Shown here one piece after another: positions 2,681-7,587 of a stretch of DNA of 8,641 bases. This DNA comes from a virus (taxonomy: Duplodnaviria > Heunggongvirae > Uroviricota > Caudoviricetes): IMG/VR virus record IMGVR_UViG_2671180299_000012; one strand, 5' to 3'. Each line of letters opens with the position of its first letter. Within the stretch, counting starts at the first letter, position 1. The notes under the pieces are model-generated. The model was not told the DNA's origin and searched no databases. It was given only the letters and a program-made list of their open reading frames with translations. The position numbers were made by a program, and so were the translations under genes.

Positions 2681-3148
2681 ATGAACCGCGTACTGTGCGT
2701 GGTCATCATTGCCCTGCTGGTGGCCTGTGGTGCGCTTAGTCTGGGGCTGAATCATTACCGTGATAACGCCATAACCTACAAAGAGCAGCGCGATAAAAAA
2801 GTCAGTGAGCTGGAGCAGGCAAATGCAACCATTACTGATATGCAGCAGCGCCAGCGTGATGTTGCTGCACTTGATGCCAGATACTCGAGGGAATTAGCCG
2901 ATGCGAGAGCTGAAAATGAAACTCTTCGCGCTGACGTTGCCGCTGGTCGTAAGCGCCTGCGGATCAACGCCACCTGTCCAGGCTCCGTGCGTGAAGCCCC
3001 CGCCACCTCCGGCGTGGATAATGCAACCGGCCCCCAACTGGCAGACACCGTTACACGGGATTATTTCACCCTCAGAGAGCGGCTGATGACGATGCACAAG
3101 CAACTGGAAGGGGCACAGGACTATATCCGCACTCAGTGCCTGAAATAA
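2681..3148 (+). CDS. Rz-like inner-membrane spanin (i-spanin)
   Basis: 155-aa ORF with an N-terminal TM helix (VLCVVIIALLVACGALSLGL) and a charged, coiled-coil-prone periplasmic domain. It lies downstream of the endolysin and carries a nested +1-frame lipoprotein ORF, which is the classic Rz/Rz1 architecture. Confidence 0.85.
   Translation: MNRVLCVVIIALLVACGALSLGLNHYRDNAITYKEQRDKKVSELEQANATITDMQQRQRDVAALDARYSRELADARAENETLRADVAAGRKRLRINATCPGSVREAPATSGVDNATGPQLADTVTRDYFTLRERLMTMHKQLEGAQDYIRTQCLK
2901..3086 (+). CDS. Rz1-like outer-membrane lipoprotein spanin (o-spanin), embedded in the Rz gene in the +1 frame
   Basis: 61-aa ORF wholly inside Rz (alternative ATG at 2916). It has a signal peptide with a lipobox (LPLVVSAC) followed by a short proline-rich mature region (CGSTPPVQAPCVKPPPPPAW), the hallmark of Rz1 proteins. 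Confidence 0.8.
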   Translation: MRELKMKLFALTLPLVVSACGSTPPVQAPCVKPPPPPAWIMQPAPNWQTPLHGIISPSESG

Positions 3149-3480
3149 GTTTTGTTGATGCGCCGTATCGTCGCTGTATTCCCTCATTAACAGAGACCGC
3201 AGCCCGACAGGGAGACTCCTCTGCGCGAGTGTGCGGGGATAATCAAAAACGATACACACCGGGGTTTACCGCGTTAACGGAGCGCGGCGTTGTCCCCTCA
3301 TGGTCGCTGGTTCGGTGCGATGGTGGAAGAAACCGGACGATGTGTTACCTCGCAAGACCTGTTATGTCATGTGTCTGATTTGTGATTTAAGTCGGATAAT
3401 TGTCGTTGCCATTAAGCAGAGGATTGATGGCCGACAGGGTGGCATTGTTAGAATAAGACTTATTCTTATCTGTGCCGGGA

Positions 3481-3813
3481 ATGAAAATGAAAAGAAATCT
3501 TCCGTTAATTATTTTGTTGTCTTCTCTGGTTATGGGCTGTACGCAACATAAAACAGATATGCCCCGACAGTTGGTTAAGGCATTACCACAATATCCGGCC
3601 TATGCAGCGGCAAATTATATAAAGGGACGGGTTGATGTGAAGTTTGATATTGGTGCTGATGGTACTGTCACCCGAATTGAGTTTATCCGTTCAGAGCCGC
3701 ACCATCTGTTTGATGAGCAGGTTGTAAAGGCGATGGCAAAATGGCGATTTGAGAAGGACAGGCCGCGTAAAGGCGTGAAGAAAACGTTTATCTTTAGTCC
3801 TTCTGCACCCTGA
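3481..3813 (+). CDS. Lipoprotein with TonB C-terminal domain (phage moron; function unknown)
   Basis: ORF with possible starts at GTG 3472, ATG 3481 or ATG 3487. It has a signal peptide with a lipobox (LSSLVMGC) and Thr at +2. The mature part (YPAYAAANYIKGRVDVKFDIGADGTVTRIEFIRSEPHHLFDEQVVKAMAKWRFE) aligns residue by residue with the E. coli TonB C-terminal domain ([54 protein letters not shown]). There is no proline-rich spacer or N-terminal TM anchor. A possible sigma70 promoter lies upstream (TTGATG, ~19 nt, TAGAAT at about 3424-3454). Confidence 0.7.
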   Translation: MKMKRNLPLIILLSSLVMGCTQHKTDMPRQLVKALPQYPAYAAANYIKGRVDVKFDIGADGTVTRIEFIRSEPHHLFDEQVVKAMAKWRFEKDRPRKGVKKTFIFSPSAP

Positions 3814-3944
3814 TTATTTCATCAGAAATTAATTATCACTCTGTTGTTATTCTGTACATTCCGGCTGGGTAAGTCTTGTTCCGCCGGGTATGAAGATGAA
3901 ATATTGTTGGAGGACAGTGGGTACCTGCTCCTGTAACCGAACGT

Positions 3945-4169
3945 TCATTTCTCGTTATTTGTCATGCTGGCCGGGCGCAGATGCGTTGCATCTGTTGCCA
4001 GCCTTCTCCTGCAGGCTTCAATAACCCACGCTGAAAAGTTACCGGAACCTTTATGTTCAAGGGCGATATTGATCTGTTCAATCATGTGATTGGGAAACGG
4101 ATATTGCGGGTTGTGGTTCTGCGGGTCCGGTTTTTCGATGACATATTTATTTCCTTTACTGATTGCCAT
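3945..4169 (-). CDS. Arc/Mnt-like ribbon-helix-helix DNA-binding protein
   Basis: 74-aa minus-strand ORF. The segment PQYPFPNHMIEQINIALEHKGSGNFSAWVIEA matches the Arc pattern PQFNLRWPREVLDLVRKVAEENGRSVNSEIYQRV, with the beta-strand, first helix and G-x-S/N turn in register. It is divergent from the HNH gene with only 16 bp between the two start codons. Confidence 0.6.
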   Translation of the reverse strand: MAISKGNKYVIEKPDPQNHNPQYPFPNHMIEQINIALEHKGSGNFSAWVIEACRRRLATDATHLRPASMTNNEK

Positions 4170-4185
4170 ATGACGGGGATTTTAC

Positions 4186-4551
4186 ATGGCTGAGCTTCGT
4201 ACACTCCAGAGCAGAATCAAAACACTGAATACCCGACGGGTGAATATTCTGAAGGGTGAACAGCGTCGTGTCAGTGGCAGTGCACGTGTTTCCCTCAAGC
4301 GTCATATCTGGCTCAGGGACGCCGGGCAGTGCCGTCTCTGTGGTCGTGTGGTTGACCTCTGTGACAGTGAACTCGATCACCGAATTGCACTTCAGTTCGG
4401 TGGTGGTAATGAGGAGACGAATCTCTGGACGCTCTGTACCGAATGCCATCGACAAAAGTCTGCTCGTGAAGCGGCGAGTGATATGCCGGACCCGACGCTG
4501 CCGGAGGTGTCCGGAGGTAGTGGCAGAGAGGACGACATCATCGGACTGTAA
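4186..4551 (+). CDS. HNH endonuclease (packaging-associated HNH of cos-type, HK97-like phages)
   Basis: 121-aa ORF with a CRLCG ... DHRIALQFGGGNEETNLWTLCTECHRQK HNH/zinc-finger motif. It sits immediately upstream of the cos-like region and terS, the characteristic position of HNH proteins that assist terminase in HK97-like phages. Its last 23 codons (from 4483) lie inside tandem repeat copy 1. Confidence 0.85.
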   Translation: MAELRTLQSRIKTLNTRRVNILKGEQRRVSGSARVSLKRHIWLRDAGQCRLCGRVVDLCDSELDHRIALQFGGGNEETNLWTLCTECHRQKSAREAASDMPDPTLPEVSGGSGREDDIIGL

Positions 4552-5003
4552 CCCGACCCCGGGGGGGGTATCATCCGGCGTAAAAAACGATCGCTTTGGA
4601 CACCGCCCCCCGTCTCACGCAGAGAAAAAATTCCCGTTTCAGGGCAGTTAACATGTTAACTGGCTGTCCGGGCATTTTTGCGGTTTTTATCTTTATTATT
4701 CAGTTTGTTGCGTGGAAAAAATGTTAACAGGCTTTTTCAGCAAATGTTAACCAGGCAGCAGTTAACATTTGCGGCATGAGACGCCGGGAAAAATGGGCTG
4801 AACCATACCCGGCTGAGTGCGTTATGGACCCGGGAGGAGGCTGTGCTGACAACGCAAAAACGAAAATTTGCGCTGGCGCTCATGTCCGGGAAAAACAAAA
4901 CAGCGTCAGCCATTGCCGCTGGTTATTCGGCGAAGACCGCCAGGGTTAAAGGCTCGCAGCTGGCAAAAGATCCGGAGGTGCTTGCGTTTATAGCCCGTAA
5001 ACA
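4483..5003. repeat. Tandem direct repeat, copy 1 (~521 bp): HNH 3-prime tail + cos-like intergenic region + first 161 bp of terS
   Basis: Direct comparison with 5008..5526 gives about 13 differences in ~520 bp, including a 2-nt indel (ACCCC versus AGC before a G8 tract). The 161 bp of terS coding sequence is identical in both copies. Confidence 0.9.
4645..4768. promoter_or_regulatory. Putative cos / terminase-recognition region: 18-bp perfect palindrome plus ATGTTAAC motif array (copy 1)
   Basis: CAGTTAACATGTTAACTG (4645-4662) is a perfect 18-bp palindrome. Further ATGTTAAC motifs lie at 4721-4728 and 4744-4751, with the inverted form GTTAACAT at 4761-4768. The region sits between the HNH gene and terS, where cos lies in HK97/lambda-like phages. 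Function is inferred. Confidence 0.4.
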
Positions 5004-5076
5004 AGGTATGCCGGACCCGACGCTGCCGGAGGTGTCCGGAGGTAGTGGCAGAGCGGACGACATCATCGGACTGTAA
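4843..5076 (+). CDS. Duplication-derived chimeric ORF: terS N-terminal 55 codons fused to the duplicated HNH C-terminal tail (possible pseudogene or decoy)
   Basis: GTG start at 4843 with the same GGGAGGAGG RBS as the full terS. Residues 1-54 are identical to the terS N-terminus (MLTTQKRKFALALMSGKNKTASAIAAGYSAKTARVKGSQLAKDPEVLAFIARKQ). At the repeat junction (~5004-5007) it switches to GMPDPTLPEVSGGSGRADDIIGL, the HNH tail with one E-to-A change. Confidence 0.5.
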   Translation: MLTTQKRKFALALMSGKNKTASAIAAGYSAKTARVKGSQLAKDPEVLAFIARKQGMPDPTLPEVSGGSGRADDIIGL

Positions 5077-5526
5077 CCCGAGCGGGGGGGGTATCATCCG
5101 GCGTAAAAAACGATCGCTCCGGACACCGCGCCCCCTCTCACGCAGAGAAAAAATTCCCGTTTCAGGGCAGTTAACATGTTAACTGGCTGCCCGGGCATTT
5201 TTGCGGTTTTTATCTTTATTATTCAGTTTGTTGTGCGGAAAAAATGTTAACTGGCTTTTTCAGCAAATGTTAACCAGGCAGCAGTTAACATTTGCGGCAT
5301 GAGACGCCGGGAAAAATGGGCTGAACCATACCCGGCTGAGTGCGTTCTGGACCCGGGAGGAGGCTGTGCTGACAACGCAAAAACGAAAATTTGCGCTGGC
5401 GCTCATGTCCGGGAAAAACAAAACAGCGTCAGCCATTGCCGCTGGTTATTCGGCGAAGACCGCCAGGGTTAAAGGCTCGCAGCTGGCAAAAGATCCGGAG
5501 GTGCTTGCGTTTATAGCCCGTAAACA
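5008..5526. repeat. Tandem direct repeat, copy 2 (~519 bp)
   Basis: See copy 1. The offset between copies is 525 bp before the indel and 523 bp after it. Copy 2 runs directly into the remainder of the full-length terS. Confidence 0.9.
5168..5291. promoter_or_regulatory. Putative cos / terminase-recognition region (copy 2)
   Basis: Same 18-bp palindrome (5168-5185) and ATGTTAAC motifs (5244-5251, 5267-5274; inverted 5284-5291) as copy 1. All motif cores are identical between copies; the substitutions fall between them. Confidence 0.4.
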
Positions 5527-5929
5527 GTGCGAGACGGTGGAGGTGGATGAGGTTCCTGTTTACCGGCAGAAAAAATCAGAGCAGGAGGATAAACCCCGTC
5601 GCCGTGAGGCGGCTGCAATACCACAGCCGGACGAAAACAATCCGGAGATGCCACCGTCCGCGGTGATGTCTCCTGGTATTGAATATATGGAGGATGGTCT
5701 TCCCGATCCGGTGAAAGCCATGGGGCGGATCCTGGTGGAAAACCTCTGCATTGATCCGAAACTGGCACTGGATGCGGCCTGGCGTCTGGCGCAGTTCACG
5801 CACCATAAAAAAGGGGATACCGGGAAAAAATCGGCAAAAGGTGATGCCGCGAAAAAAGCGGCTAACCGTTTTGCGGTGCCACCGCCACCCCGACTGGTGG
5901 TGAATAACGATAATGAGGAAAGCGGATGA
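5366..5929 (+). CDS. Terminase small subunit (Terminase_2-type)
   Basis: 187-aa ORF with a GTG start and GGGAGGAGG RBS. The N-terminus LTTQKRKFALALMSGKNKTASAIAAGYSAKTARVKGSQLAKDPEV matches the conserved HTH DNA-binding region of small terminases. Its stop overlaps the terL start (ATGA at 5926-5929), indicating translational coupling. Confidence 0.85.
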   Translation: MLTTQKRKFALALMSGKNKTASAIAAGYSAKTARVKGSQLAKDPEVLAFIARKQCETVEVDEVPVYRQKKSEQEDKPRRREAAAIPQPDENNPEMPPSAVMSPGIEYMEDGLPDPVKAMGRILVENLCIDPKLALDAAWRLAQFTHHKKGDTGKKSAKGDAAKKAANRFAVPPPPRLVVNNDNEESG

Positions 5930-7587
5930 TACCTGTATGGAGCACAGCCTGCCCGGACTGGGCAGAGCGCCTGAAAAAGGGGCTGTCGATTATTCCGGAT
6001 CCGATTTATCCGGACGAGGCCGCACATGCCCTGGCGATTTTTAAACAACTGCGGATTGTGGATGCACCTGGTAGCCCGACGTTCGGGGAGTCCTGTGCAC
6101 CGTGGGTGTTTGACCTGGTGGCGGCCCTGTTTGGCTCCTACGATGCGCAGACCGGTGTACGCCATATCAAGGAAGTTTTTATCCTTATCCCCAAGAAAAA
6201 CTCGAAGTCCACGCTGGCCGCGGGGATCATGATGACGGCGCTGTTACTGAACTGGCGGCAGGCGGCGGGTTACACGATTCTGGCCCCGACTGTGGAGGTG
6301 GCGGCCAACGCCTTCAACCCTGCCCGGGATATGGTACGACGTGACGATGATCTGGATGACCTCTGCCAGGTACAGACCCATATCCGGACCATCACCCACA
6401 GGGTGACAGACACCACCCTGAAGGTGGTGGCAGCCGATCCGAATACGGTGTCCGGTATCAAGTCCGTGGGTACGCTGATTGATGAGTTGTGGCTGTTTGG
6501 CAAGCAGTGCAAGGCGGAGGACATGTTACGTGAAGCCATAGGCGGCCTTGCCTCCCGCCCGGAAGGGTTTGTGGTGTATACGACCACCCAGTCGAATGAA
6601 CCGCCCGCCGGGGTATTCAGACAGAAACTGCAGTACGCCCGGGATGTGCGCGACGGCAAAATTCATGATCCGCACTTTCTGCCGGTGATATTTGAATACC
6701 CTCCTGAAATGGTGGAAAGCGGGGCTCACCTGCTGATGGAAAACCTCGCCATGGTCAATCCGAATCTCGGCTATTCAGTGGATGAGGCCTTTCTGTACCG
6801 GGAGTACCGTAAAGCCCGGGAAGCCGGTGAAGAGACATTCCGGGGGTTCATGTCAAAACACGCCAATGTGGAAATTGGTCTTGCCCTGCGCTCTGACCGC
6901 TGGGCGGGGGCTGATTTCTGGGAAGAGCAGGGCCGTTGTATCAGCCTGGACGATATCCTGCGTCGTGCTGATGTGGTGACGGTGGGGATTGACGGCGGAG
7001 GGCTGGATGATCTGCTGGGGATGTATGTGATTGGGCGTGACCGGGAGACCCGCGAATGGCTGGGCTGGGGCCATGCCTGGGCGCATGAAACCGCGGTGGT
7101 CCGACGGAAGAGCGAGGCGTCCCGGTTTCAGGATCTTGTTGCCTGTGGAGATATGACCATTGTCCGGCGTGTCGGGGATGACACGGCGGAAGTGGCGGAA
7201 TATGTGCGTCGCATTCATGAGGCTGAGTTACTGGACCATATCGGTATTGACCCGTCAGGGGTGGGGCAGATTCTGGATTCACTGGCGGAAGCCGGGATCC
7301 CCGACGGAATTGTGGTGGGGATAAGCCAGGGCTGGAAACTGGGCGGGGCCATTAAAACCACCGAGCGCAAACTGGCTGAAGGGGTGCTGGTGCATGGTGA
7401 CCAGCCCCTGATGGCCTGGTGTGTCGGCAATGCCCGGGTGGAGCCTAAAGGTAACGCCATTCTTATCACCAAACAGGCCAGTGGACGGGGAAAAATTGAC
7501 CCGCTGATGGCGCTGTTCAATGCGGTCTCCCTGATGTCCCTTAACCCGGAACCGAAAAAGAAAGAATATGCGGTTTTTTTCATATAA
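5926..7587 (+). CDS. Terminase large subunit (HK97-like Terminase_1 family)
   Basis: 553-aa ORF with a deviant Walker A-like PKKNSKST, a Walker B-like LIDELW, and nuclease-domain acidic motifs (VTVGIDGGGLDDLLG, GIDPSG, KIDPLMALFNA). Its size and position right after terS fit a large terminase. Confidence 0.9.
   Translation: MIPVWSTACPDWAERLKKGLSIIPDPIYPDEAAHALAIFKQLRIVDAPGSPTFGESCAPWVFDLVAALFGSYDAQTGVRHIKEVFILIPKKNSKSTLAAGIMMTALLLNWRQAAGYTILAPTVEVAANAFNPARDMVRRDDDLDDLCQVQTHIRTITHRVTDTTLKVVAADPNTVSGIKSVGTLIDELWLFGKQCKAEDMLREAIGGLASRPEGFVVYTTTQSNEPPAGVFRQKLQYARDVRDGKIHDPHFLPVIFEYPPEMVESGAHLLMENLAMVNPNLGYSVDEAFLYREYRKAREAGEETFRGFMSKHANVEIGLALRSDRWAGADFWEEQGRCISLDDILRRADVVTVGIDGGGLDDLLGMYVIGRDRETREWLGWGHAWAHETAVVRRKSEASRFQDLVACGDMTIVRRVGDDTAEVAEYVRRIHEAELLDHIGIDPSGVGQILDSLAEAGIPDGIVVGISQGWKLGGAIKTTERKLAEGVLVHGDQPLMAWCVGNARVEPKGNAILITKQASGRGKIDPLMALFNAVSLMSLNPEPKKKEYAVFFI

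Follow-up and report, generated by a model that had tools for sequence, protein, structure and literature searches.

A probable frameshifted ylcI/ynfO-family gene beside the packaging-associated HNH gene of an Escherichia coli lambdoid prophage

The minus-strand open reading frame and its deletion

The stretch of DNA analyzed here (the window) is the 8,641-nucleotide virus record IMGVR_UViG_2671180299_000012, and the feature under study is a minus-strand open reading frame (ORF) of 74 amino acids at 3945-4169, taken from the ORF list of the window. Its ATG lies 16 bp from the ATG at 4186 of a plus-strand gene for a packaging-associated HNH endonuclease of 121 amino acids (4186-4551; Pfam HNH, E-value 3.7e-8; PHROG 589; RefSeq name 'HNH endonuclease'). 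The window corresponds to the late region of a lambdoid E. coli prophage whose packaging module is of the HK97 type, and positions 3400-4700 share 95-99% identity with Shiga toxin (Stx)-converting phages and with prophages in 1464 of 5426 complete E. coli genomes. A first-pass annotation had read the ORF as a solo Arc/Mnt-like ribbon-helix-helix (RHH) regulator divergent from the HNH gene. The ORF and the 16-bp gap are literally present in the sequence; however, comparison with relatives indicates that the ORF is not a natural gene and that its start is not a genuine one.

The ORF matches Pfam DUF3950 (E-value 5.8e-20; 71.3 bits against a cut-off of 25) over residues 29-58 only, and because of this match it is regarded as a real coding remnant and not a chance ORF. 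The Pfam model (PF13132) spans only the helix-turn-helix-B part of the family. When the ORF is compared with PHROG 949, profile positions 1-16 find no match; likewise, positions 1-8 of the NCBIfam model NF041551 (YlcI_YnfO_N), which takes in the strand and the arm, are left without a match, and the score of 25.7 bits is below the cut-off of 30. Intact members from EDL933 (35.3 bits) and lambda (37.6 bits) pass this cut-off, whereas the 46-residue form of the deletion allele described below (20.2 bits) fails it.

In intact relatives the gene encodes a YlcI/YnfO (DUF3950) protein of 64-77 amino acids that begins MSSKNRTRRTTTRNIRFPN. Alignment with EDL933 and BP-4795 places a 1-bp deletion at codons 18-19, where the run at 4092-4094 reads CCC on the coding strand and the relatives read CCCC (GGGG on the plus strand). 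The annotated gene start in EDL933 and BP-4795 is the ATG equivalent to 4144-4142 of the window. It is separated from the HNH start by 41 bp, and this true spacer (4145-4185) has the same length in the window as in both relatives. From the canonical start, the frame in the window runs for 20 codons (MSSKNRTRRTTTRNIRFPIT), ends with the residues RNIRFPIT and meets a premature TGA at 4084-4082; the remnant of the true 5' end therefore occupies 4082-4144 on the minus strand. The remaining 3' part, two-thirds of the gene (3945-4085, minus strand), stays in frame as 46 codons from M29, covering helix A, a turn, helix B and a variable tail, and the ATG of M29 (4085-4083) overlaps the premature TGA as ATGA. 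The intact frame of EDL933 encodes a protein of 66 amino acids (MSSKNRTRRTTTRNIRFPNHMIEQINIALEHKGSGNFSAWVIEACRRRL), to which the window sequence is identical once the missing base is restored.

The sequence context of the possible starts agrees with the annotation of the relatives. A Shine-Dalgarno sequence, AAAGGAA, can be read at 4151-4157 (minus strand) ahead of the canonical start at 4144. The ATG at 4169 follows CCCCGTCAT, in which there is no Shine-Dalgarno sequence, and a comparable purine run is absent before both this ATG and the ATG at 4085. Additionally, BLASTN alignments of the window with lambda, DLP12 and Qin extend only over 4000/4011-4144, and their boundary falls exactly on the canonical start codon. 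The 74-residue ORF is chimeric: residues 1-26 come from out-of-frame reading of the leader and of the true 5' end, and residues 27-74 are in the authentic YlcI/YnfO frame. The out-of-frame ATG at 4169 reads across the deletion into the authentic frame; therefore, both the 74-residue ORF and the 16-bp gap are by-products.

The deletion allele is rare. As a 43-mer it was found in 5 of the 5426 complete E. coli genomes, compared with 1169 genomes (1460 places) for the intact allele, a 44-mer with the extra base. Two of the five carriers, MB06102 and NZRM4169, were inspected, and in both the RefSeq label of the identical allele is 'YlcI/YnfO family protein, frameshifted'; it is thus already known in annotation that identical alleles are frameshifted YlcI/YnfO pseudogenes. 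The exact 74-residue ORF is present on 20 further independent contigs from isolates and metagenomes, the 46-residue form from M29 (the deposited product of the deletion allele) on 634 contigs, and the intact 66-residue protein on more than 1000. Since the deletion allele recurs in independent assemblies, it is a real, inherited and rare mutation and not a read error. Overall, the feature is most probably a copy of a ylcI/ynfO-family (Pfam DUF3950) gene that has been inactivated by a frameshift (probability roughly 0.8). What had been taken for a whole gene is in substance a piece of a gene that is disrupted relative to its relatives. With the start corrected to 4144 and the frameshift recognized, the supposed tight divergent regulatory pair is removed.

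The intact family and its predicted fold

Codons 1-48 of the canonical frame were compared between HK97-type copies (EDL933 and BP-4795) and lambda-type copies (lambda and Qin). The ratio of nonsynonymous to synonymous divergence (pN/pS) is 0.05-0.15, with pN at 0.04-0.09 and pS at 0.5-0.75, the latter near saturation. These values indicate that the intact gene is a functional gene under strong purifying selection. Among 14 divergent members from Escherichia, Salmonella, Klebsiella, Rouxiella and metagenomes, residues I15, R16, F17, I25, F37, W40 and C45 are invariant. The 74-residue ORF keeps the helix residues; however, Y-P-F replaces I-R-F (the F is retained by coincidence only), and there is no basic arm rich in K and R. 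Both I-R-F and the basic arm are encoded in the window DNA, but in the frame cut short at 20 codons. Lambda-type and HK97-type copies do not differ in the arm and strand that are predicted to read DNA, although their flanks are unrelated. Where the ylcI-HNH region occurs in an E. coli genome, the median number of copies is 2 and the maximum 10.

In RHH proteins of the Arc/MetJ/CopG kind, the N-terminal strand serves both the dimer sheet and the base contacts, and the DNA-reading sheet is built from one strand of each subunit. For the intact YlcI/YnfO family, an RHH fold is predicted and is considered likely. In an AlphaFold2 (AF2) monomer model of an intact member, residues 1-18 are extended and helices are predicted at 19-32 and 37-54, with a mean predicted local distance difference test (pLDDT) score of 66 and a core of 76-82; the strand is not a feature that can be scored in a monomer model. 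Foldseek searches with an intact member against the Protein Data Bank (PDB) and viral models returned lists dominated by ParD, NikR, Arc, NikA, AtaR, Mnt and CopG, and also rich in mycobacteriophage proteins named 'RHH DNA binding domain', none of them significant (best E-value 0.12). Pairwise hhalign comparisons with manually entered Arc, NikR and CopG sequences placed I-R-F in register with the N-terminal strand at probabilities of only 0.6-8%. An iterated protein search with a profile of divergent members gave 1277 matches, and the best 120 of these carry DUF3950 only, with no bridge to a named RHH family seen among them.

For the 74-residue ORF itself, AF2 predicts helices at 27-40 and 45-63, and pLDDT is 46-55 over residues 1-20. 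Because the N-terminal strand is absent, this product would not be expected to bind DNA. The description of the ORF as an Arc/Mnt-like RHH protein is reasonable, if unproven, when applied to the intact family, but does not extend to the window ORF, from which the invariant I15-R16 and the basic arm are missing.

Several distant relatives occur in other settings. A Salmonella copy is an isolated chromosomal gene that has a fimbrial chaperone gene on one side and a type I restriction-modification system on the other, and a Rouxiella copy is an isolated chromosomal gene that follows cytochrome bd genes. In two small integrase-bearing elements, P0216 and P0212, the homologue is the sole gene on its strand and diverges from an operon, at the place where a repressor is expected. 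The P0212 protein (129 amino acids; locus L019, 4714-5103, on a single Logan contig from SRR22184587) has its DUF3950/YlcI domain fused to a Terminase_2 (small terminase) N-terminal domain. This element resembles a phage-inducible chromosomal island (PICI) in having an integrase gene, an AlpA-like gene and a primase gene, and the fusion gene is divergent from the primase operon. These relatives, which are single examples, are compatible with a DNA-binding module to which differing C-terminal parts are added, an arrangement shared by many RHH regulators. A tblastn match in the Pasteurella 'phage' Pmp7, under a gene annotated 'transcriptional repressor', was rejected, as the match lies on the opposite strand.

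Literature searches with ylcI, ynfO, DUF3950, b-numbers and the WP accession found no functional study, and returned only two mutation tables, the y-ome list and one excludon list. An E. coli O157 ribosome profiling (RIBOseq) paper on small genes leaves the ylcI-type gene unmentioned. Published work places ynfO among the uncharacterised Qin prophage genes of K-12, and YlcI/YnfO has no known phenotype (PMC11551758). YlcI/YnfO is one of the commonest uncharacterised E. coli prophage genes; the knowledge gap is a small one, and the suggestion of an RHH fold gives a concrete handle for testing.

Position, transcription and neighbouring sequences

The conserved property of the ylcI-type gene is its position and orientation: it is the last gene before the cohesive end site (cos) and is antisense relative to the late operon. 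The HNH gene, followed by the small (terS) and large (terL) terminase subunit genes, adjoins it in EDL933, BP-4795 and many Stx phages. In Nu1-type contexts, the ylcI-type gene adjoins nohD (DLP12), nohA (Qin) and Nu1 (lambda) instead, and a conserved RHH-HNH pairing, which had been proposed as a check on the regulator, is therefore not kept. In lambda (NC_001416), an intact 64-residue YlcI homologue is encoded on the complement of 48109-48303 (locus L006, 2710-2904), 199 bp from the right cohesive end. Its protein is identical to K-12 YlcI, and the lambda RefSeq record has no feature there.

The first-pass annotation also held that the promoters of the two genes must lie within coding sequence or that the pair is tightly co-regulated. 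This argument rests on a start codon created by the frameshift and falls with it. The HNH gene lies between the lysis and terminase genes and on the same strand as these; since the late transcript can serve it there, the HNH gene would need no promoter in the gap. A passage citing Kala et al. 2014 describes its HK97 homologue, gp74, as working with terminase in cos cleavage (PMC11331095). Similarly, the idea that the ORF controls the lipoprotein moron or HNH/terminase expression finds no support, and a window copy lacking I15-R16 and the arm cannot be assumed to be a regulator. In K-12, ybcW and ylcI are listed as a convergent overlapping pair (an excludon) that was detected in at least 50% of RNA-seq samples (PMC12288877), and thus the silent prophage appears to transcribe ylcI. 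Upstream of the ylcI-type start, the flanking DNA of one context is unrelated to that of another. In DLP12 and Qin, a weak G-U-rich hairpin on the late strand within the 5' coding region was taken to be a chance structure.

The absence of a toxin-like partner holds for the window. The 3' side of the ylcI-type gene is a non-coding stretch of 131 bp (3814-3944) with no conserved partner ORF, and beyond it lies a plus-strand TonB_C gene. A 33-residue minus-strand ORF at 3847-3948 has an ATG that overlaps the ylcI-type stop codon as ATGA. It was considered as a toxin and rejected: it has no family match, its DNA is not shared with BP-4795 (in which homology begins at 3991), and it is probably a chance ORF. 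No defence-system model matched when PADLOC was run on the protein.

Elsewhere in the window, a RusA-like gene (387-746) and a Q-like gene (743-1183) were assigned by eye alone. A lysozyme gene (1849-2382) takes the RefSeq name of its matching gene, and Rz and Rz1 (2681-3148 and 2901-3086) correspond to genes named 'lysis protein' in RefSeq. The TonB_C-domain lipoprotein gene (3472-3813; Pfam TonB_C, E-value 5.8e-15) encodes a lipobox-like N-terminus (LVMGC) and a C-terminal TonB domain; the PHROGs name for its family, 'Rz-like spanin', is apparently a mislabel. The genes terS (5366-5929) and terL (5926-7587) were assigned by family match. Rfam and tRNA scans of the entire window gave no match.

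The region between the HNH gene and terS contains a tandem duplication of approximately 524 bp (4482-5531; units at approximately 4482-5006 and 5007-5531), whose copies are 95-97% identical. Each unit comprises the last 70 bp of the HNH gene, the whole HNH-terS intergenic region (presumably with cos) and terS codons 1-54. As a result, the HNH-terS gap is 815 bp in the window and 289 bp in relatives, and a hybrid ORF (4843-5076) joins the terS N-terminus to the C-terminal 22 amino acids of HNH. The 46-nucleotide duplication junction was found in none of the 5426 complete E. coli genomes, and the duplication is also absent from the examined contigs that have the same frameshift allele and include terS. 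It may have arisen by unequal recombination between two related prophages, or may be an assembly artefact. A cluster of GTTAAC(AT) motifs lies in the same region, at 4645-4662, 4721-4730, 4744-4753 and 4758-4770, and is repeated from 5168-5185 onward. The cluster, which the first-pass annotation had listed as the ATGTTAAC array, holds the perfect palindrome CAGTTAACATGTTAACTG. On grounds of position, it is more probably a site recognised by the small terminase near cos than one targeted by the ylcI-type protein; the residues with which that protein is predicted to read DNA are identical in lambda, whose cos region is unrelated.

Interpretation and comparison with known systems

The observations suggest the following account. 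The intact gene, of 64-77 codons, runs against the late operon of lambdoid prophages and occupies the final gene position ahead of cos. It most likely encodes an RHH-type DNA-binding protein, for which a basic N-terminal arm, a strand with the invariant I-R-F, two helices and a variable tail at the C-terminus are predicted. Because the gene is antisense to the late transcript, it is probably expressed in a moron-like manner during prophage repression. In the window copy, one C has been lost from CCCC at codons 18-19, which stops the real frame after 20 residues. The upstream out-of-frame ATG at 4169, with no ribosome-binding site, happens to read into the remainder of the gene and thereby accounts for the 74-residue ORF and the apparent 16-bp gap. 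The products to be expected are a 20-residue N-terminal peptide and, at most, a little of a helix-helix fragment with no strand, and the window copy most likely has no DNA-binding function. The HNH gene would be expressed from the late transcript together with the terminase genes, with no co-regulation with the ylcI-type gene.

Several points weigh against this account. The overlap of the premature stop and M29 as ATGA could permit some reinitiation, and total loss of product is unproven. The persistence of the deletion allele in several lineages fits neutrality and also leaves room for a residual role. Dimerisation and DNA binding of the intact family are predicted properties. Pfam searches of three intact members at E-values up to 10 returned DUF3950 only and no RHH family, and searches of PDB sequences with two family profiles, also at E-values up to 10, gave no match. 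Additionally, promoter and terminator scans of four contexts gave no convincing sigma-70 promoter for the ylcI-type gene; the sole minus-strand candidate upstream, CTGACA-17-CAGAAT at 4274-4246, agrees at 9 of 12 positions.

Three other explanations were considered. In one, the 74-residue ORF is a genuine solo Arc/Mnt-like regulator that starts 16 bp from the HNH gene and controls lipoprotein or HNH/terminase expression. The ORF is indeed open and ATG-initiated, retains both helices and is unchanged on 20 contigs. However, its start at 4169 has no Shine-Dalgarno sequence, and its N-terminal 26 residues are out of frame, with prolines (PQYPFP) at the position of the strand. The invariant I15 and R16 and the basic arm are absent, the NCBIfam cut-off is not reached, purifying selection acts on the other frame, and the allele is found in 5 genomes compared with 1169 that are intact, under a RefSeq label of pseudogene. 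A genuine regulator is, accordingly, hardly to be expected here. It is also very unlikely that the base is missing through an error of sequencing or assembly in the source of the window and that the real gene is intact. A change of a single base in a C/G run is what such an error at a homopolymer would leave, and the unusual 524-bp tandem duplication, not seen elsewhere, could indicate assembly problems. Yet the same allele is present in five complete genomes from differing places and hosts and on 20 further contigs, its 46-residue annotation is found on 634 contigs, and a run of four bases is short for a systematic homopolymer error.

The remaining explanation gives the allele an activity of its own. 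Reinitiation at the ATGA (stop at 4084-4082, M29 at 4085-4083) would yield a strand-less fragment of 46 residues that forms heterodimers with the YlcI/YnfO proteins of other prophages and poisons them. The ATGA directly follows a well-initiated ORF of 20 codons, E. coli genomes bearing the region hold a median of 2 and as many as 10 copies, and the DNA-reading sheet of RHH proteins draws one strand from each subunit. However, this scheme is purely inferential: M29 has no Shine-Dalgarno sequence, the allele is rare, and a helix-only fragment may be unstable. Such poisoning is therefore considered quite improbable, and inactivation of the window copy by the frameshift is the preferred reading.

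A wider role for the intact family is a different matter. It is conceivable, if unlikely, that intact YlcI/YnfO is an unrecognised RHH DNA-binding module whose role is tied to cos and packaging or to the control of mobile elements. Three observations allow it. The antisense, last-before-cos position is kept whatever the terminase type, and the lambda copy is unannotated. One PICI-like satellite fuses the domain to a TerS N-terminal domain at the repressor position. Lastly, the predicted DNA-reading arm and strand are identical in lambda-type and HK97-type copies despite their unrelated flanks.

Comparison with known systems places the window gene most closely with YlcI of DLP12 and YnfO of Qin, with which it shares its family (PF13132, NF041551, PHROG 949), its antisense orientation and its place as the last gene before the packaging genes. 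Relative to these K-12 genes, the window copy has the 1-bp deletion, and its neighbours are HNH-terS-terL (HK97-type) rather than nohD or nohA (Nu1-type). In Qin, the DUF1398 gene ydfO follows ynfO by 57 bp on the same strand (locus L008, 6757-7458), whereas the window has no such gene. DLP12 and lambda also have a DUF1398 gene (ybcV and lambdap78, respectively) on the strand of the ylcI-type gene, set apart from it by ybcW or lambdap79, and the ylcI-type and DUF1398 genes could be a two-gene module that is missing from the window. Over residues 1-52, the 64-residue lambda ORF and the repaired window protein share 88.5% identity, and the lambda ORF is likewise on the minus strand and last before cos; it differs in being intact and in having unrelated flanks, with homology to the window limited to 4011-4144. 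Similarly, the reverse-oriented morons of the lambda right end, such as bor, are small genes on the antisense strand of the late region, with the lysis genes on one side and cos on the other, although bor encodes a lipoprotein with a described phenotype (serum resistance for the host, according to the lambda record) and YlcI/YnfO is without a known one. With regard to fold, the best matches of the intact family, none of them significant, are in the RHH superfamily (Arc and Mnt of P22, CopG, the NikR N-domain, the PutA N-domain, and the antitoxins ParD, TacA and AtaR). The predicted order of elements is the same, namely a basic arm, a short strand (I-R-F), helix A, a G-S-x-N/S turn and helix B, and the C-terminal tails are variable, as in many RHH regulators and antitoxins. 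The intact family differs from these in that neither its sequences nor its profiles match any RHH family significantly, and the window copy differs further in that it lacks the strand altogether.
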